Origin: Nitrosopumilus sp.
GTDB taxonomy: Archaea; Thermoproteota; Nitrososphaeria; Nitrososphaerales; Nitrosopumilaceae
Assembly: GCA_965223425.1 (NCBI GenBank)
Contig: OZ245003.1
Coordinates: 2,048,001 to 2,112,000, forward strand
Length of the DNA: 64,000 bases
Direction: 5' to 3'
The notes beneath the pieces are model-generated. The model saw only the letters and a list, made by a program, of their open reading frames with translations. It made no database searches and was not told where the DNA came from. Position 1 is the first letter of the stretch; every line of letters begins with the position of its first letter. Below are positions 18,005 through 57,910 of this stretch, piece after piece. Both the position numbers and the translations under genes were made by a program.

Positions 18005-19351
18005 TTAGTCTGTCAGTGACGGATCAGACACCCTTCCCATGAACAGGATGGTGCCGCTCTCGTCGTCCTGTATGATAAAGATGAATGGGTGGTCTGCGGT
18101 AAATTTTGGTGGTGGTGGAGGCATCGACTCCATTCCTATTACTATTGTAGTCACGGCTGCAGCCTCTGTCCCCTCTTCGTTTACGTTCACATATGCGTCC
18201 TGAACCGCCTTTGAGACAAACAGGTTTCTTCCAGATACGTCTGCAATGCCTGAGAGGTCTGCTATTTTTTTCTTAAAAGCATCTGTCATTCCAAGGCTTG
18301 TCAAGCTGGGTTCTAGATCATAATGTGTCTTCATCTCAAACTTTGGAATAGACACTATCACCTCAGATTCTGTCATACCTTGCTGCCATTTCTGCAAGAG
18401 TTTGGTCGAAAGCATCTCCTGTAATCGTTTTATGCCGTCCCTCTCAGAGGGCAGTACCACCAGCATGGAGAGTCTGTCGCCCTTGTAGGGCATCTTTAAC
18501 ACCTGCACGCCATCGCCTTCGGCATAGTTGAATGTTCCACGCACGTTCATAAAGTCAGTCCTGATGCTGTTACTGTTTGTCCAAAAATCCGACTCGCGTG
18601 TATCCTCTGCCGGGAACTGCGTCACCCAAGTTCCCTTAAAGTATATGGCATTTGCCAGAACCATCGCAGTAAGGTAACTTACAGCATCAGGTGCTAACAC
18701 CTTCTTTATCTTGCCGTGCGTTTTCTCAGACGCCCATGCGTTTATCTTCCCTACACCATCGCCCAAAAAATTGACGCGTTCGGCTTTGGCAAGGTACGTC
18801 TTGCGTATTATGTCCATGTATGAGTCATACGGAGAAAACCAGTCGGCAATCCAGACGGAGTTTGCAAGCTCCAGTGTGGCGTGCGGATCATCACGGTTCA
18901 AGGACGGCATAATGTGGGCAGTGGCGTTGTGACGCAGGGCCACGTCTGAGTCAAACCCGAAGACCTGCTGAATCTGCTGTGCCGTGTTTTCACGCGCCCC
19001 CTCGTACAGCATGGAGAATGCCACATACATGCTAAGAGGCGAGAAGAAGATGTTGTCATCATCATTGCCTGATACCTGTCCGTAAAAGTCCATGGCAAAG
19101 TCGTTGTTTGCCATGGCTATGCTTTGCGGGATCTCTGAGGGCTCCCCCTGAAGGCTGAAAGATATGTTATTTGGGATGTCAATGAGTGTTGAAACAAGAG
19201 GGGCCATGTATGTCCCAAAGTCAGACACGTAGACCTGTACAATATGGAGAGAAGGAATGATAATCTTAACTAAGAATTCATTATCAAGCATCATCACAAA
19301 AAAGGCCACTATGGCTACAAATATCAGGATTGTAACATATCTTTTCTTCAT
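18005..19351 (-). CDS. serpin with N-terminal membrane anchor/signal
   Basis: NIFFSPLS, NAIYFKGTW, hinge EEGTEAAAVT, FTADHPFIF..ILFMGRV; hydrophobic N-terminus. Confidence 0.95.
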   Translation of the reverse strand: MKKRYVTILIFVAIVAFFVMMLDNEFLVKIIIPSLHIVQVYVSDFGTYMAPLVSTLIDIPNNISFSLQGEPSEIPQSIAMANNDFAMDFYGQVSGNDDDNIFFSPLSMYVAFSMLYEGARENTAQQIQQVFGFDSDVALRHNATAHIMPSLNRDDPHATLELANSVWIADWFSPYDSYMDIIRKTYLAKAERVNFLGDGVGKINAWASEKTHGKIKKVLAPDAVSYLTAMVLANAIYFKGTWVTQFPAEDTRESDFWTNSNSIRTDFMNVRGTFNYAEGDGVQVLKMPYKGDRLSMLVVLPSERDGIKRLQEMLSTKLLQKWQQGMTESEVIVSIPKFEMKTHYDLEPSLTSLGMTDAFKKKIADLSGIADVSGRNLFVSKAVQDAYVNVNEEGTEAAAVTTIVIGMESMPPPPPKFTADHPFIFIIQDDESGTILFMGRVSDPSLTD

Positions 19352-19444
19352 GAGACTTTATGCGTATCCATGTGAATTCTTTATAAACATTCCTTGCAAA
19401 CTGTCACAGTGTTGAATGGCTCACGCTGGGGTTGATCCAAATTC

Positions 19445-19570
19445 CAAAAGATGAGCGGACAAGTATCCATTCGGGATCTTACTCCCAGTGCCATTCTTCA
19501 TCCATTTGTTAGATTGAACCGCAGTTAATTGCCCGAGGTGTAACCTCAACGCATAAAACGCAGACAGACT
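19445..19570 (-). ncRNA. bridge/seek RNA of IS110 element 3
   Basis: Minus strand TTTATGCGT-[GAGGT..ACCTC hairpin]-CAATTA matches target CTTTATGCG-TA-ATTG; second loop ATGGATA is complementary to element end TATCCAT. Confidence 0.75.
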
Positions 19571-19584
19571 CTAACCGTAATAAA

Positions 19585-20574
19585 TTATTTTTGGGCAACA
19601 TACTCTTTTTTCTCCTTTAGCATCCAATATATTACACGTATCAGCTTTGATGCCGCTGCAACCTTTGCCTTTGATCTTCCTCTCTTTTTTGCAAGACGGT
19701 TGCAGAATCTTGTAATGTCGCTGTCAGGCGCGTGTCTTGTATGGGTCTGGATTGCCTCCACTGCTATCCATCGCAGCATACGGCTTCCCCTCTTTGTTAT
19801 CCTGCCGTGGTGTACCGTCTCAGCAGAGTTTCTCACGGACGGAACAATGCCCGCGTATGCACACAGTTTGTGCGAGTCTGAAAATCTTTTGACATTGCCA
19901 ATCTCCGAATATATTGCAAGCGCAGAATAATACCCTATTCCAGGAACGGTGGTCAGCAGACTGATGTTCTGATCCCTTTTGACTATCCGGCGGGTTTTTA
20001 CATCCATTTTGTAGATCTGCCCGTCTAGAAACGCTATGGAATCAAGGAACGAATCTATGCGATAGTTCCTCAGTTTTCTCAATTCCCTTACGTGGCCGGA
20101 TCCGAATCCGCCGGATTTTGTCTTGATTCCGTTTTGCAAGAGTATCCCATGTATGGAATTCTTCATGACTGTTCTTGTCTTGACCAGTTTGTTTCTGTGT
20201 CTTGCAAGGTGTCTTAGCTCTACTATGTCATTGTCGGGCACGTGGCACTGTGCAATGTAGCCCCCTCTCAATAGATTTGCCAGCGCCTGCGCGTCCACCT
20301 TGTCTGTTTTTTTGAGCGACGTTGCAATTACCTTGGTGCTAAACGGATTGGATACGATTACATTTAATCCCAGCGTATCTGTGAGAAACCGGTATAGGCC
20401 GTACCAGACAGATGATGATTCCAGCACGTATTTTGAGTCCCTTGGGATCATGGCAAATGTTTTCCTGATCTCCGCATGATTGTTCTTTATCTTCATGTTG
20501 GACTGCAGTGTCCCGCCGCCATCCAGTACTGCAACTTGAATCGTCTCCTTGTGCACGTCTAGTCCAACATACAT
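19585..20574 (-). CDS. IS110 recombinase, intact
   Basis: GLDVHK, LESS, KTDKVDA, PGIG, YAGIVPSVRNSA. Confidence 0.92.
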   Translation of the reverse strand: MYVGLDVHKETIQVAVLDGGGTLQSNMKIKNNHAEIRKTFAMIPRDSKYVLESSSVWYGLYRFLTDTLGLNVIVSNPFSTKVIATSLKKTDKVDAQALANLLRGGYIAQCHVPDNDIVELRHLARHRNKLVKTRTVMKNSIHGILLQNGIKTKSGGFGSGHVRELRKLRNYRIDSFLDSIAFLDGQIYKMDVKTRRIVKRDQNISLLTTVPGIGYYSALAIYSEIGNVKRFSDSHKLCAYAGIVPSVRNSAETVHHGRITKRGSRMLRWIAVEAIQTHTRHAPDSDITRFCNRLAKKRGRSKAKVAAASKLIRVIYWMLKEKKEYVAQK

Positions 20575-20741
20575 GATCTTGTCAGAACCACGGGTAATCT
20601 GTTTCTTTGTTTTTTTCTTTTTAAAGGACTTGATGCCAGTGTCATCTAAAATTCCTTTTCTCCGAGCCTTCACATATGGTTAATTGAATCATAAAAATTT
20701 TTCCGAAAGATTTAGATCCATTTTGATCGCCGCAACAGGTA

Positions 20742-22001
20742 ATGGAATCTTCAGAACAGACTATACGCAGGCTGCAAAGGGAGCTCAAGCAGAAGGACAC
20801 AGCAATCAAGCAAAAGGACACAGCAATCAAGCAAAAGGACACAGCAATCAAGCAGAACAACAGAGCAATCAAGCAGAACAACAGAGCAATCAGGCAAAAG
20901 GACGCAGCAATCAGCAGGCGCGAGAAGACAATTGGCCTGCTGCGCGAGCAGCTGCTGCTGCGCGAGGACGGCCTGTGGGCCGTTACAGATGCAGGCCGCT
21001 CTGATACGGACACGTCGCTGCTGCACATCAGGGAGGTGATCCACGGCATACTGCACAACAGCGCAAAGCTTGCGGGAATTACCTCGTATGACCTTGACCA
21101 GTTTGACTACATCTGCAATGACTTTGTGGCAGAGTCAAAGAGGCACAACAAAGACGCGCCGCTCTTTTCAGAGGACGAAACACCGGATCCCGGAAACCGC
21201 TGCCTGCCTGGCCGCAGATCTGTTCTGCTCATGGCGCTGTTCCGCAAGCGCTCAAACGTGACGCAGGATGCACTGGGAGTGCTGTTTGATGTTGACCAGT
21301 CCACCGTGTGCAGGTACCTCAAGTTCGCAGATTCCGTGCTGGCAGGGATCCTGCCTACTGCAGACAGGATGACCCGTCTGGTAAAAAAGGCCGAGACATC
21401 AGAGCAGCTAGAGCAGCTAATGCCGGACAGAACCATCATAATTGACGGCACCGAGGCGGTGCCAAGGCAGCGTCCGCAGGACAGGGATAAAAGAAAAAAC
21501 ACGTACTCTGGCAAAAAGAAGCGCTTTACGATTAACACCGCCATAACAACAAACAGGGCAGGGCCTGATACCTGCAGCAGGCAGGTCCTTTGAGGGCGGG
21601 ACGCATGACCTTACCATGATAAGAGAGGATCCGACAGACTGGCAGGCGGTCTAAATCCATGTACAAAAAGGACACTCCGGAAAAGGACAGGATACGGGTA
21701 CTTGCAGACAAGGGGTACCAGGGATGCCAATCACTACACGGGAATAGCACTTGAGATGCCGGAAAAAAAGAGGCCGCGGACGGAGCTGACGCAGCAGCAA
21801 AAGGACTCGAACAAAAGGATCAGCGCCAAGAGGGTAAAGGCGGGGCACGCCATCGGAAGAATAAAGCAGTGGGCGAGGATGACAGACCCGTACGACGGCA
21901 CGGTAGAGGAGTTTCGCGAGGAGCTGGCTGTGTGTACCGGCCTTGCGAACTTTCAACTGCTGTGGGATGCAAAGAAAAAGCGGCCGTCACTTGGTTATTG
22001 A
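20742..22001 (+). pseudogene. ISL2-like transposase, frameshifted near 21560-21720, catalytic Glu apparently lost
   Basis: HTH (LFDVDQSTVCRY), IIDGTE, YSGKKK, LADKGYQG, RVKAGHAIGRIK (G in place of E). Confidence 0.85.
20786..20915 (+). repeat. 21-bp tandem repeat (about 6 copies) encoding KQKDTAI/KQNNRAI heptads
   Basis: AAGCAAAAGGACACAGCAATC-like units. Confidence 0.9.
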
Positions 22002-22154
22002 CGGCACAGCACAGGGTGCATGAGGCACTGCAAGAGTGCGCACGGGTTTTGAATTTCTGCGAATTTACAATGATCTTTTGCATCAAAATTAAATAATTTT
22101 CTGGACTGGCTTTGTGTGTCTTGGTAGTGTGTGCTGCAGAAAAAATTTGACGGG

Positions 22155-22415
22155 TCAATTATGCATAAAGTCTACAGTATCAAATGGTTCACTTTTAATT
22201 ATGGCTTGAATTTGTTGTCCCTTCTCTGAAAAATTTAATGTGTAATAAGGAACAGGATTATTTCTGTATTCTTCAATGATCTTATCTGCTCTCAATTCTT
22301 CATAAGCAGTTTGAGTATTTCTTTCAAAATTACTGGCAAATGTTTTGAACACTTCTTCCTCATTCCTAATTCTATAATGTGTACCTGCCATCTTTCTATA
22401 CATGAAAAATTTCAC
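22155..22415 (-). CDS. hypothetical protein, C-terminus (DFMHN*) supplied by IS TIR, probably truncated
   Basis: Stop codon lies inside TIR 22155-22173. Confidence 0.5.
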   Translation of the reverse strand: MKFFMYRKMAGTHYRIRNEEEVFKTFASNFERNTQTAYEELRADKIIEEYRNNPVPYYTLNFSEKGQQIQAIIKSEPFDTVDFMHN

Positions 22416-46419: not shown

Positions 46420-47904
46420 TTGAAATACGTAGGATTTTTTGTAATGATTTTAGTTTTACTGATTGGTTTGCACGCCAACAGCCTAACATATGCAGAAATA
46501 TCATGTGATGATCATGGAGCAGATTTGTATCCTTACCAATCAATCACACCACTTGATTATTCAATTACAAATGGCAAATTTGTTAGCTTATGTGCAAATC
46601 CTGATTATCTATATTATACCATCAATCTTGATACAACAGCAGCAGGAAGTCTAATTATTGAGATACCAAAAGAATCACTTGACTTGAAACAATTTGATTA
46701 TGAATCATGTTTTCCTAACGATTTGAGCACGAATATTGATTTTGATAGAACCACAACAGTAACACAAATTGCACAAACTGACATTTCACGCACTTTGGAA
46801 TTTACTTGGAACGAACCAATAATTCACATAGTATATTTTGGAACATATGCAATTATTGATGGAGTTGATTATTCAGAGCCTAACTATTGTATTGGTTTAG
46901 TTGAGAGTGGAGAGAAAAGTGAAGTAATTGAAAAGGCTACTGATTGGAGAGAAGATAATTATTGTCCAGAAGAACTGAATTATGATTATGAAATTACTAA
47001 TGGCAAAGTTAAAAAAATTTGCTATATTGAAGGCATTTATGAAATTGTTTATTATTTAGACAATGTAACATCACCAAGTATATTGACTATTGATATGCCA
47101 TACACGCATTTTCCAAGAATAACTAAGGATAATTTTTATGATTTTATCATAATGATTGATGGTGAAGAACATAGTTATTTGTCAGAAAATTTACAAAATG
47201 AAAATTCTGACTATCAAACTTATGAAATTAAATTACCAATTAACAGTGAAATTTTAGAAATTATAGGTTTTGTATATACATCTGCTGGTTTAGTTGAGAG
47301 TGAAGAGAAAAGTGCCGAAATTAAAAAAAATACTTGGCAGAATTATGATGATGATTGTATTCCAGAAATAATAACTGATTATACTCTAAATTATGGTAAA
47401 TTAGCAAGAATATGTGAACCAACTAATCAATCTATAATGATAATCACATCAGATATTATTTTTAACAGTATTCTCACTATTGATATTCCATATACTAAAT
47501 TACCTTTAATGACAACCGAGAATTATAAAGATTTTATATTGCTATTTGATGGGATACAAACTGATAATTTTAAAGTAATATATCAATACCCAGAATATCA
47601 AACTTTTGAGATAGACTTGATTTCTGATGTTATTTCCATTGAATTATTTTACAATATGAGTAGATTTTTGGTAGAACATAATTCTAATGAAATAGATCAT
47701 GAATACAATCTAACTACACCATTATTAGATATTGAAAAACCAAAAACAGAATTCAAGATTAAAATTGAAAAACCATCCTGCAAATCTAATCTTGTAGAAA
47801 TTATGAAGCCTGATAGTAGTAAATATGTATGTATAAAACCAACTACTGCAGAGAAATTAATCTTACGTGGTTGGATTAATCCATTAGACTTTATGCACAA
47901 TTGA
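46420..47904 (+). CDS. secreted thaumarchaeal surface protein with three repeated beta domains
   Basis: Signal peptide; 3x Y.ITNGK..IC..L.IDIP; C-terminal C..K...CIKPTTAEKL..RGW motif; low GC. Confidence 0.75.
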   Translation: MKYVGFFVMILVLLIGLHANSLTYAEISCDDHGADLYPYQSITPLDYSITNGKFVSLCANPDYLYYTINLDTTAAGSLIIEIPKESLDLKQFDYESCFPNDLSTNIDFDRTTTVTQIAQTDISRTLEFTWNEPIIHIVYFGTYAIIDGVDYSEPNYCIGLVESGEKSEVIEKATDWREDNYCPEELNYDYEITNGKVKKICYIEGIYEIVYYLDNVTSPSILTIDMPYTHFPRITKDNFYDFIIMIDGEEHSYLSENLQNENSDYQTYEIKLPINSEILEIIGFVYTSAGLVESEEKSAEIKKNTWQNYDDDCIPEIITDYTLNYGKLARICEPTNQSIMIITSDIIFNSILTIDIPYTKLPLMTTENYKDFILLFDGIQTDNFKVIYQYPEYQTFEIDLISDVISIELFYNMSRFLVEHNSNEIDHEYNLTTPLLDIEKPKTEFKIKIEKPSCKSNLVEIMKPDSSKYVCIKPTTAEKLILRGWINPLDFMHN

Positions 47905-48205
47905 ATCGTCAAAATTTTTCCGAAAGATTTAGATCCATTTTGATCGCCGCAACAGGTAATGGAATCTCCAGAACAGACTATACGCAGGCTGCAAAAAGAG
48001 CTCAAGCAAAAGGACACAGCAATCAGCAAGCGCGAGAAGACAATTGGCCTGCTGCGCGAGCAGCTGTTGCGCGAGGACAGCCTTGTGGAACGTGACAGGA
48101 GATGCGGACCGCCTCGAGACTGAGACGGCACTGCTTCACAGCAGGGAGGCAATCCATACCATACTGCACAACGACGCAAAGCTTGCAGGCATTACGTCAT
48201 TTGGA
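47886..48205 (+). mobile_element. truncated left end of the ISL2-like element (copy of 19353/20683-21080)
   Basis: Near-identical to 20683-20800 and 20910-21080; only one 21-bp heptad unit. Confidence 0.85.
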
Positions 48206-50533: not shown

Positions 50534-50632
50534 AGACCTTATGCATAATCGATCAAACTAATATTGCGAGATGATTTTTGCCTTAGTAAACCAATTTGAT
50601 TTTGAATTTTTAGTCGATTACGCATAAGGTCT
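50534..50632. mobile_element. 99-bp MITE related to the ISL2-like element
   Basis: IR AGACCTTATGCATAATCGA/TCGATTACGCATAAGGTCT (18/19). Confidence 0.8.
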
Positions 50633-57157: not shown

Positions 57158-57910
57158 TATCCGTGTGCCGTCTTTATAAGAATTCCCAACATTTTTCATC
57201 CTGACAGGTACGGCACAAGCTAGAATTATTTCCAGACCGCAAAGGCCCAAGACAGCAAAGAAGTGAACAGTTATCCATCCGAGGCTATCGCCGGGGCAAT
57301 CCCTCCTCAGCATCATTCTCCATTCTTTTATCAGGTATAATGCAATTACAAGGCAAGGCATACAGCTAGGTCTGTCCCTCAATGACTTCATCGCAATTGA
57401 CATCCTGACTGTAACTTGTAACAAACGCTCTTCTTTCCTTGAGCATCCAATAAATGACTCGCGGCAGTTTTGAGGCAGCAGCTACTGCTACACGTCCCTT
57501 GCCCCTCTTCTTTGCAAGCCTCTTGTAGAATACCGAAATGTCAGACTTGGTGCATACCTGACATGTGACAAAATGCACTCTGTCAGAACCCACCTGCATA
57601 TGTCGCTTCCATGTGCGTTATGTGTCCATAATGTAGACTCGCCGGAGGATCTCACAGACGGGACAACGCCGACATAAGAGCATAGTTTGTGTGAGTTGAC
57701 GAATCTTTCTATGCCGTTATGGTGCATGCAAGACCAGTGCAGAGTATGCCCCGACGCCCGGAATGGTCTGCAGTAGTGCTGCATCCTTGTTCTCTTTTGC
57801 TGCCTGACGTACTCTTGCATCTGACTGGAATCTTGTCGTTTATGCTGTTTATCGTGTCCAGGTACTAGTCTATCCTATAGTCGCTTATCTTTCGAACCTG
57901 TGCAATCCAT
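57158..57910 (-). pseudogene. degraded IS1111-like IS110 element with retained end and non-coding region
   Basis: KLCSYVGVVPSVRSSG, KRGKGRVAVAAASKL fragments; end TATCCGTGTG..TCTTTATAA is homologous to 19365. Confidence 0.8.

Follow-up and report, generated by a model that had tools for sequence, protein, structure and literature searches.

The locus described herein raises the question of whether an archaeal insertion sequence (IS) that lies inside the terminal inverted repeat (TIR) of another transposon was directed there by an RNA in which that repeat is spelled out. The element, designated E1, is located in a 64,000-nt stretch of contig OZ245003.1 of Nitrosopumilus sp., which is referred to throughout as the window; G000 and C1 denote this genome and its contig, respectively (window position 50534 is C1:2098534), and the transposon interrupted by E1 is called ISx. 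Within the IS110 family, E1 is very probably an autonomous RNA-guided IS of the IS1111 branch, carried by a Nitrosopumilaceae-like archaeon, with the functions of its guide RNA and recombinase being predicted from comparative evidence. An initial annotation of the window had already proposed a complete archaeal bridge/seekRNA element of the IS1111 type that reads the TIR in which it resides, and the fold, the covariation, the uniform placement of its insertions, and the archaeal rRNA of the genome all argue for this proposal.

E1 is an IS110-family element of the IS1111 type: it carries a recombinase gene that is followed by a structured RNA, and its ends bear short sub-terminal repeats. The plus strand between 19353 and 20690 reads AGACTTTATGCG-TA-TCCATGTGAATTC ... 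CTTCACATATGGT-TA-ATTGAATC; one end of E1 begins with TCCATG at 19367, and the opposite end reads CATATGGT, followed by TA at 20681-20682 and ATTGAATC at 20683-20690. In element orientation, the ends are TAACCAT-ATGTGAA and TTCACAT-GGA, namely, a perfect 7-bp repeat with extensions of 7 nt on the left and 3 nt on the right, as in IS1111 elements, and the sequence CACAT[GA]G[AG] is kept across 42 right-end contexts. A unitig from a public sequencing run covers 19365-20687. The core dinucleotide occurs as one TA at vacant sites and as a TA at each junction when the site is occupied; as with IS110/IS1111 elements, therefore, nothing other than the shared core is duplicated.

Three full copies of E1 are present in the genome: copy A in the window, copy B at approximately C1:323146-324460, and copy C, which is inverted, at C1:2046227-2047577. 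These copies differ at 9 internal positions of approximately 1316, none of which is in a guide (at least 99% alike), and their recombinase frames are all open, with 364 codons and no stops. In element orientation, the junctions of copy A read GATTCAAT-TA-ACCATATGTG on the left and CACATGGA-TA-CGCATAAAGTCT on the right, those of copy C read GGGTCAAT-TA-ACC... and ...GGA-TA-TGCATAAAGTCT, and the left junction of copy B is the same as that of copy A. Two truncated right ends, comprising the last 40 nt and the last 17 nt of E1 joined to a TIR tip, were found at C1:66866-66923 (minus strand) and C1:2260257-2260287 (plus strand), respectively. The TIRs entered by copies A and B are of the left type and that entered by copy C is of the right type; the TA used and the orientation with respect to the TIR are the same in all three, and, with the two remnants included, all five E1 insertion events are at one TIR position. 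The second remnant has CA in place of TA at its junction, as does a CA-core variant of the TIR, AGACTTTATGCACAATTG, which has 6 vacant copies, and this hints that a mismatched core may be usable.

The target is abundant in this genome. The 22-mer obtained by re-joining the TIR across E1 matches the window at 22152-22173 on the minus strand with 3 mismatches and at 47886-47907 on the plus strand with 2, while 100 shuffles gave zero matches, and a 19-nt version was found at 110 places in the genome at up to 4 mismatches. The commonest intact forms are AGACTTTATGCATAATTGAATC (17 copies), which is the left end of the ISx of approximately 1.5 kb, and AGACTTTATGCATAATTGACCC (14 copies), which is its right end; AGACCTTATGC[G/A]TAATCGA... 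is present in about 40 copies as the ends of a 99-bp miniature inverted-repeat transposable element (MITE), whose ends in the window at 50534 and 50632 (genome 2098534 and 2098632) are near-cognate, with the sequences AGACCTTATGCATAATCGA and AGACCTTATGCGTAATCGA. Genome-wide, vacant cognate sites of the form TTTATGC[AG]TAATTG number 33 and those of the MITE type, CTTATGC[AG]TAATCG, number 39. The initial annotation had described a TIR split at TA by E1, an intact copy of it at 47886, and further near-cognate vacant sites, and had suggested a genome-wide check of the insertions. The strings quoted for the split are all where they were placed, matches were obtained at 22152-22173, at 47886, and at both ends of the MITE, and the genome-wide check puts all insertion events in ISx TIRs at the same position; regarding 47886, the match stands, with its 2 mismatches, but the junction reads GCA-CA and not GCG-TA.

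The recombinase assigns E1 to the same family. [quoted passage not shown] An AlphaFold model from a 5-sequence alignment (mean predicted local distance difference test score, 81.3; predicted template modelling score, 0.72) superposes over its full length, at template modelling scores of 0.66-0.72, on chains from the synaptic complexes of IS621 and ISCro4; the sequence matches to these two proteins are weak (E of about 1e-8), that to IS621 being confined to the C-terminal half. The best named match is ISHvo10, with 37.4% identity over 99% of the length, and full-length identities to IS4321 and ISKpn4 are 20% and 22.5%, respectively. We counted G-I-V-P-SVRN-S-A as the serine motif, in which A replaces the G of G-L-x-P-x4-S/T-G. 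In the rRNA operon of the genome, both the small and large subunits score as archaeal after clan competition.

Regarding the RNA, the minus strand reads TTTATGCGT at 19557-19549, CAATTA at 19531-19526, and ATGGATA at 19470-19464. The first of these, UUUAUGCGU as RNA (19557-19549), is complementary to A-CGCATAAA on the top strand to the right of the TA core, and pairs with the consensus tip TGCATAAA with one G:T. The second, CAAUUA(A), equals CAAT-TA, that is, the top strand to the left of and including the core. UUUAUGCGU lies 5' of CAAUUA, with an overlap of the two matches at the A of the TA core, which is the guide order of IS1111 elements; since they are on opposite strands, they fit a guide and do not fit TIR sequence that was captured. 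Read along the RNA, ATGGATA runs in the sense of the right end and would, thus, pair with the bottom strand. The two target guides claimed by the initial annotation were, therefore, recovered at both positions, and its second loop is correctly located and matches the element's own end, but in the same sense rather than as a complement of the right end.

The RNA (19581-19428) is downstream of the end of the open reading frame at 19585, and only 9 nt precede the GTG at the left end, a layout that is also that of IS1111 elements. Relatives were searched for in 41 related genomes, 7 of which were positive including the present one, and in a contig collection, from which the best 80 of 489 confirmed loci were taken; almost all of these 80 are from metagenome-assembled genomes of Nitrosopumilus, Nitrosopumilaceae, or Cenarchaeum, and a few are from Thermoplasmata, Methanomassiliicoccales, or Archaeoglobus at 37-40% identity. 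In an alignment of 155-nt stretches 3' of the gene from 26 diverse elements, RNAalifold gave helices P1, P2, and P3 and the donor-loop hairpin, and the target-loop hairpin was added by hand, resulting in an architecture in which P1 and P2 lead to a target loop with a hairpin and P3 to a donor loop with a hairpin. Across the 26 relatives, 94.4% of the 664 cells of this five-helix structure are paired, versus 33-47% when the partners are slid by 1-3 columns, and compensatory changes on both sides were noted in five helices and in 14 of 26 pairs, the latter number being reached in none of 500 shuffles. The covariance model built on it, R1, gave 86 matches at E <= 0.001 over 88 sources and 12 in the whole genome, and, in the majority of related archaeal loci, places the RNA next to the recombinase. 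Because P1 overlaps the stop codon in many relatives, the RNA is probably a product of the 3' untranslated region made from the recombinase transcript, and the CUUUUGG tract that follows it is a possible archaeal terminator.

Two further observations concern this region and the model. A conserved YAGCGNRAGCYAUNC (CCAGCGUGAGCCAUUC in E1) occurs at 19411-19427 of the minus strand, between the modelled RNA and a TATA-like box and outside R1, and is also present in relatives; it is possibly a small GNRA-type hairpin or a right-end protein-binding site. The window contains a second R1 match at 57236-57415 on the minus strand (65 bits) that adjoins a recombinase fragment at approximately 57420-57830 with 34% identity to E1; this locus (57236-57830) is a remnant resembling E2, a second family that is described below, and its flank and guide do not match.

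Guides were compared with flanks and ends among the relatives. With one representative per distinct guide pair, picked by model score and not by flank, the reverse complement of the 5' target strand was found as an exact match of at least 9 nt within the 100 nt after the RNA in 8 of 43 elements, versus 0 of 1550 pairings with other elements' guides. When the right end was located by the donor strand and a register of +/-2 nt was allowed, 8 or more of 9 positions matched in 13 of 38 cases (1 of 1178 in the control). Held to a single register (8 or more of 10), the test gave only 8 of 39, versus 1 of 1362 with other elements' guides, a low yield that is due to register shifts of 1-2 nt from one subfamily to the next. 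The 3' target strand matched the upstream flank over at least 8 nt in 20 of 43 elements (control, 35 of 1538), and over at least 4 nt of the variable part only in 19 of 34 (control, 63 of 1060). At the donor side, the 7-mer of the 3' strand recurs at the element's own right end in 39 of 48 cases, versus 8 of 432 for the 7-mers of other classes, and the complement of the left end of the same element is contained in the 5' strand in 47 of 56 contexts, a count without a control; the complementary pairs switch among ATAG/CTAT, ATGG/CCAT, ACGG/CCGT, ACTGT/ACAGT, and ATGAT/ATCAT. E1 and its relatives, thus, possess a two-loop RNA, the strands of which co-vary with the target flanks and donor ends. 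A separate candidate, namely that relatives share the same TIR motif, was rejected: only 4 of 73 distinct contexts have TTATGC[AG]TAA close to the junction.

Several results weigh against E1 as a guided and active element, and those that concern guidance are considered first. When E1 is taken alone and position is ignored, a complementary match of at least 9 nt plus a same-sense match of at least 7 nt to the 30-nt re-joined target arises in 0.9% of cases when the non-coding region is shuffled 20,000 times and in 1.6% of 20,000 random genome windows. The donor 5' strand of E1 pairs over 4 nt only, reading AUGGC versus the usual AUGGU of its relatives, and about half of the relatives' representatives have guide-to-flank matches below 7 of 9, which is expected for decayed or off-target copies and yet is a real limit of the evidence. 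The single-sequence fold of 19353-19600 (minus strand) was no better than shuffles (z = -0.34), and the thermodynamic optimum (-39.2 kcal/mol) and the model structure (-25.4 kcal/mol) are different folds. An Rfam 15 scan of 19000-21000 with E up to 10 returned chance snoRNA-like matches only and no family, and R1 gave no match at the ISHvo10 locus with filters off. It is conceivable from such figures that the protein, or homology that the ends share with the target, selects the site, with the non-coding matches being coincidental or leftover captured target DNA: an unconstrained match has a probability of about 1-2% for E1 alone, a CATA occurs in the same register in both the left end (ACCATAT) and the right target (ACGCATAA), and the fold of the region is not unusually stable. 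We consider this explanation to be extremely improbable. The target matches are on opposite strands around a conserved hairpin, unlike a captured TIR fragment, loop positions track the flanks in dozens of relatives with unrelated targets, the donor-loop strands co-vary with the ends, compensatory changes have occurred in the helices, and, in the available text of two studies, the mechanism has been experimentally established for family members (PMC11187229; PMC11208160). The improbability of the match in E1 alone is suggestive only, and the family-wide tests are decisive.

The remaining adverse results concern activity. The recombinase has SA in place of SG in the serine motif, although this is also the case in 34 of 48 distinct relatives. 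The right junction of copy B reads GGAT--GCATAAAGTCT, with 2 bases missing; in its longer form (...CACATGGAT-GCATAAAGTCT), two bases of the TATA/TATG run at the core are absent, and copy B is probably no longer able to excise precisely. As many as 33 cognate sites are vacant versus just 3 full copies, which shows that the activity of E1 is low or recent. No junction-like 20-mer with up to 2 mismatches was found in the assembly, and the contigs of four runs (X1, X3, X5, and X6) over 18800-21400 contained no joints and no circle junction, contigs being a form of data that drops rare forms; all that they showed were unitig breaks at the E1 ends and loose ends reading intact TIR tips that belong to other copies. 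No RNA run was among the public sequencing runs listed for the locus. E1 may, accordingly, be pictured as a genuine IS1111-type element that is now a fossil, the copies of which are relics with an inactive RNA and recombinase and the guides of which record past targeting. The excess of vacant cognate sites, the two truncated remnants, the 2 nt gone from copy B, the AUGGC of the donor strand, and the failure to detect the circle junction in the assembly or the four runs' contigs are all in keeping with this. On the other hand, all three recombinase frames are intact, the 9 differences among the copies have left the guides untouched, the host ISx copies have diverged by 3-5%, such that the insertions are much younger than their targets, and SA is the majority state in multi-copy relatives; the fossil explanation is, therefore, unlikely. 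We retain the reading of E1 as an autonomous guided element, and its features are collected in Table 1.

Table 1. Features of E1, its predicted RNA, and the interrupted ISx copy (positions in the window).
Feature	Position	Strand	Remarks
Outer 12 bp of ISx left TIR, AGACTTTATGCG	19353..19364	.	In element orientation: right target half, CGCATAAAGTCT
TA core copy, right-end junction	19365..19366	.	Second TA at 20681-20682; single TA at vacant site
E1, 1316-bp IS1111-type element	19367..20682	-	Three copies with identical ends; one TA counted with left end
E1 right end, GAATTCACAT-GGA	19367..19379	-	Repeat TTCACAT 19376-19370 and 3-nt extension GGA 19369-19367
TATA-like box, TTTATAAA	19380..19387	-	Outward-pointing, 14-21 nt inside right end; proposed junction promoter (putative function)
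Bridge/seekRNA (predicted)	19428..19581	-	R1 match 124.8 bits; structured core 19575-19457; U-tract 19449-19446
P1	19575-19570 with 19513-19508	-	
P2	19563-19559 with 19523-19519	-	
Target loop 5' strand, UUUUAUGCGU	19549..19558	-	9 nt complementary to A-CGCATAAA (core A and outer TIR tip)
Target-loop hairpin, UGAGG-UUACA-CCUCG	19534..19548	-	
Target loop 3' strand, GGCAAUUAAC	19524..19533	-	CAAUUA = left target CAAT and TA core; next AC = first bases of left end
P3	19503-19499 with 19461-19457	-	
Donor loop 5' strand, AAGAAUGGCAC	19488..19498	-	AUGG complementary to CCAT of left end TAACCAT
Donor-loop hairpin	19487-19472	-	
Donor loop 3' strand, AAUGGAUACU	19462..19471	-	AUGGAUA = right end ATGGA and TA core
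DEDD recombinase, 362 aa	19585..20673	-	GTG at left-end positions 10-12; conserved core from ATG 20574; motif GIVPSVRNSA
E1 left end, TAACCAT-ATGTGAA	20669..20682	-	7-nt extension and sub-terminal repeat; GTG at 20673-20671
Remainder of ISx (DDE_Tnp_4 and HTH_Tnp_4)	20683..22173	+	Transposase frame broken in this copy; inner TIR ATTGA 20683-20687
Right TIR of same ISx copy	22152..22173	-	Vacant, fully cognate, of the type occupied by copy C

The host of E1 was also characterized. The frames at 20742-21593 and 21702-22001, to the right of E1, belong to the DDE_Tnp_4/HTH_Tnp_4 transposase. The intact ISx transposase (425 aa) matched DDE_Tnp_4 with 76.6 bits and also HTH_Tnp_4, and reached 71.8 against the NCBIfam IS5 models, below their cut-off of 140; because the DDE_Tnp_4 match is accompanied by a score under the NCBIfam IS5 cut-offs, we call ISx IS5-like, and regard the 'ISL2' label as unproven. 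An intact frame of approximately 425 aa is present in 2 of 16 ISx copies examined and is broken in all three E1-hosting copies. Flanks were inspected by eye for a target duplication of ISx and no consistent one was found. A variable 7-residue tandem repeat (KQKDTAI / KQNNRAI) occurs in the N-terminal part of the transposase, at 20790-20900 in the window and in other ISx copies.

The E1-bearing ISx copies B and C are 95.4% and about 94-97% identical, respectively, to the ISx of copy A, and other ISx copies are closer to the latter than the E1-bearing ones (97.2% and 97.0%). The hosts have diverged while the E1 copies are near-identical, which indicates that E1 entered the three ISx copies independently and recently. 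A composite of ISx and E1 moving as a unit was rejected in view of the divergence of ISx, and the suggestion of the initial annotation that E1 may ride on its host is not supported: the E1 copies differ at 9 positions, their hosts are approximately 95-97% identical, and these hosts are not mutual nearest relatives. The other suggestion, that E1 immobilises the host IS, is plausible because the 19-bp TIR is split into 12 and 5 bp around the TA, which probably disables that end of ISx.

Some ISx sites show additional peculiarities. The right TIR of an ISx at C1:31727-31748 (minus strand) reads AGACTTTATGGTTAATTGACCC, with GT for CA, which are the terminal bases of the E1 left end; it looks like the footprint of an E1 lost by deletion across the shared TATG, and two adjacent substitutions fit equally well. 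In the inner ISx TIR region, an A/T run resembling a palindrome (AAAAATTTTT) was noted at 20691-20702 of the window and at the same place in copies B and C. As pure speculation, this run, at about -29 to -21 from the GTG, might serve E1 as a chromosomal TATA box and might be a reason for the choice of this position in the TIR.

A second IS1111-type family, E2, is present in the genome, with a recombinase 49% identical to that of E1 and the same RNA scaffold (C1:1500638-1503201 and five further sites). The sequence of its target loop is UGAACUCGU ... UUGUAAU, and its copies are found directly next to TA[C/T]GAGTTCAC, with which a MITE of approximately 76 nt ends; of the 14 tips of this type in the genome, 6 are occupied by E2, and one MITE carries inverted E2 elements at both of its ends. 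Among the relatives L056, L057, L114, L117, and L079, some flanks read ...GTAACCA-TA-TGTGAATAAG; a sibling IS1111-type element has this sequence as its left end, and the guides of these relatives match that end (ATGTGAAAA), such that one family member lies inside the end of another. Further relatives target palindromic repeats, e.g., TTTGGTGATCGGATCACCAAA.

The question of how the recombinase and RNA are expressed arises from the geometry of the ends. In the 42 distinct right-end contexts, positions -21 to -14 read Y-T-T-A-W-A-A-A, with at least 93% A/T at -20 to -15, and an A-rich stretch precedes this TATA-like box. Each of the 42 left-end contexts has TAAC[C/T]ATATGTG, or this sequence with one base changed, and an in-frame GTG at positions 10-12, and the frame from this GTG is open for at least 300 codons in 31 of the 42. 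Since just 9 nt precede the GTG, there is no room for a promoter in the left end; across a circle junction, the right-end box would fall at -30 to -23 from the G of the GTG, where the TATA box of an archaeal promoter generally lies with respect to the start site. The arrangement suggests that circularisation may assemble a promoter for a leaderless transcript of the recombinase plus the RNA. A scan for sigma-70 promoters and intrinsic terminators yielded nothing above shuffles; these are bacterial signals and irrelevant for an archaeon.

The box points out of the integrated element, and E1 is flanked by a serpin gene at 18005-19351 (minus strand). The ATG of this gene (19351-19349, minus strand) lies at a distance of 1 nt from the tip of the ISx TIR and of 15 nt from the E1 right end, and the outward box at 19387-19380 would set a transcription start a few nt upstream of it. 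The serpin may, as a result, have come to rely on the IS for its expression.

By homology with IS621, ISEc11, and ISKpn4, E1 would be excised as a circle with the junction CACATGGA-TA-ACCATATGTG. A tetramer of the recombinase would hold the RNA, the donor loop of which would bind the circle junction and the target loop the TIR site GATTCAAT-TA-YGCATAAAGTCT, and strands would then be exchanged at the TA between the donor junction and the TIR. If the conserved geometry of the ends is a guide, the leaderless recombinase-plus-RNA transcript would be produced only after excision. Taken together, it appears possible, albeit somewhat short of an even chance, that these elements form an archaeal IS1111-type clade, mostly of Nitrosopumilaceae, that combines expression gated by circularisation with hyperparasitism of the ends of mobile elements. 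Such a clade would have a promoter of the B recognition element (BRE)/TATA type wholly within the right end and a start codon 10 nt inside the left end; when integrated, the promoter would fire outward, in the window toward the serpin gene, and the ends parasitised would be IS5-like TIRs for E1, MITE tips for E2, and sibling left ends for some relatives. If this is correct, members of the clade may be natural disablers of the elements that they target.

As described in the available text of Siddiquee et al. (PMC11187229), IS1111 elements have asymmetric extensions, a downstream non-coding region, and a G-x-x-P-x4-S/T-G motif, with an occasional TA in the motif, their sub-terminal repeats are usually 11-13 bp, and the seekRNA guide order places the top-strand match 5' of the bottom-strand match. 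The available portion of Durrant et al. (PMC11208160) gives a range of 7-17 bp for sub-terminal repeats and a bridge RNA predicted in the right end for 93% of IS1111 entries. The 7-bp repeat of E1 is, thus, at the low end of the latter range and shorter than the usual 11-13 bp. A total of 662 archaeal IS110-family recombinases are counted in the accessible part of a preprint (bioRxiv 10.1101/2024.06.21.599552), and a Nitrosopumilus genome has the top archaeal IS content according to the accessible part of another study (PMC13343696). In the literature covered, which did not extend to supplementary ISfinder predictions, there was no account of this thaumarchaeal RNA family, of targeting of IS5-like TIRs, or of the TATA/GTG arrangement, and the pairing of a right-end TATA with a left-end GTG appears to be new.

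E1 does not overturn current understanding. Its value is that a single archaeal genome makes readable the target, the donor, the core, and the guide loops, together with a large number of natural vacant sites, and that related elements with different targets provide a natural 'guide-swap' series for a compact mesophilic system, with a recombinase of 329-362 aa and an RNA of approximately 140 nt (range, about 120-155 nt). The habit of IS1111 elements of entering the TIRs of other transposons is extended to archaea and to IS5-like hosts. If the proposal on the right-end TATA and left-end GTG is true, the junction-promoter strategy of circle-forming IS would have been implemented with archaeal promoters and leaderless mRNAs.

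The closest parallel in habit is with IS4321 and IS5075, IS1111 elements that reportedly target the 38-bp TIRs of Tn21-family transposons, a finding said to go back to Partridge and Hall in 2003. These, too, are reported to be DEDD elements with sub-terminal repeats that take a fixed position and orientation in the TIR of another transposon; they are bacterial, in contrast to E1, with a host of the Tn3 family that is not IS5-like and with bacterial promoter logic, and IS4321 is approximately 20% identical to E1. In layout, E1 resembles ISEc11, ISKpn4, ISPa11, and ISPst6, which, in the available descriptions, have a non-coding region downstream of the transposase gene, 7- and 3-nt extensions, no target duplication, and a top-strand match 5' of the bottom-strand match with an overlap at the crossover. 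The seekRNA of these four elements has been experimentally shown according to the same descriptions, whereas E1 is archaeal, its RNA is predicted, its repeat is 7 bp versus 11-13, and it has SA versus SG/TG. IS621 and ISCro4 share with E1 the target and donor loops, the use of one strand per DNA strand, and a common core dinucleotide, as far as the available text indicates (PMC11208160); they differ from it in that their RNA is encoded upstream of the gene, within the left end, their guides come in the opposite order, and the core is CT versus the TA of E1. ISHvo10 from pHV4 of Haloferax volcanii is archaeal, the nearest named relative of the recombinase, and a diverged relative of IS1111 in the available text of PMC11187229, which also reports long non-coding regions on both of its sides, unlike those of E1. 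The logic of the E1 RNA is, thus, that of the IS1111 seekRNAs and IS110 bridge RNAs, of which it represents a clean example that will not surprise the specialist.

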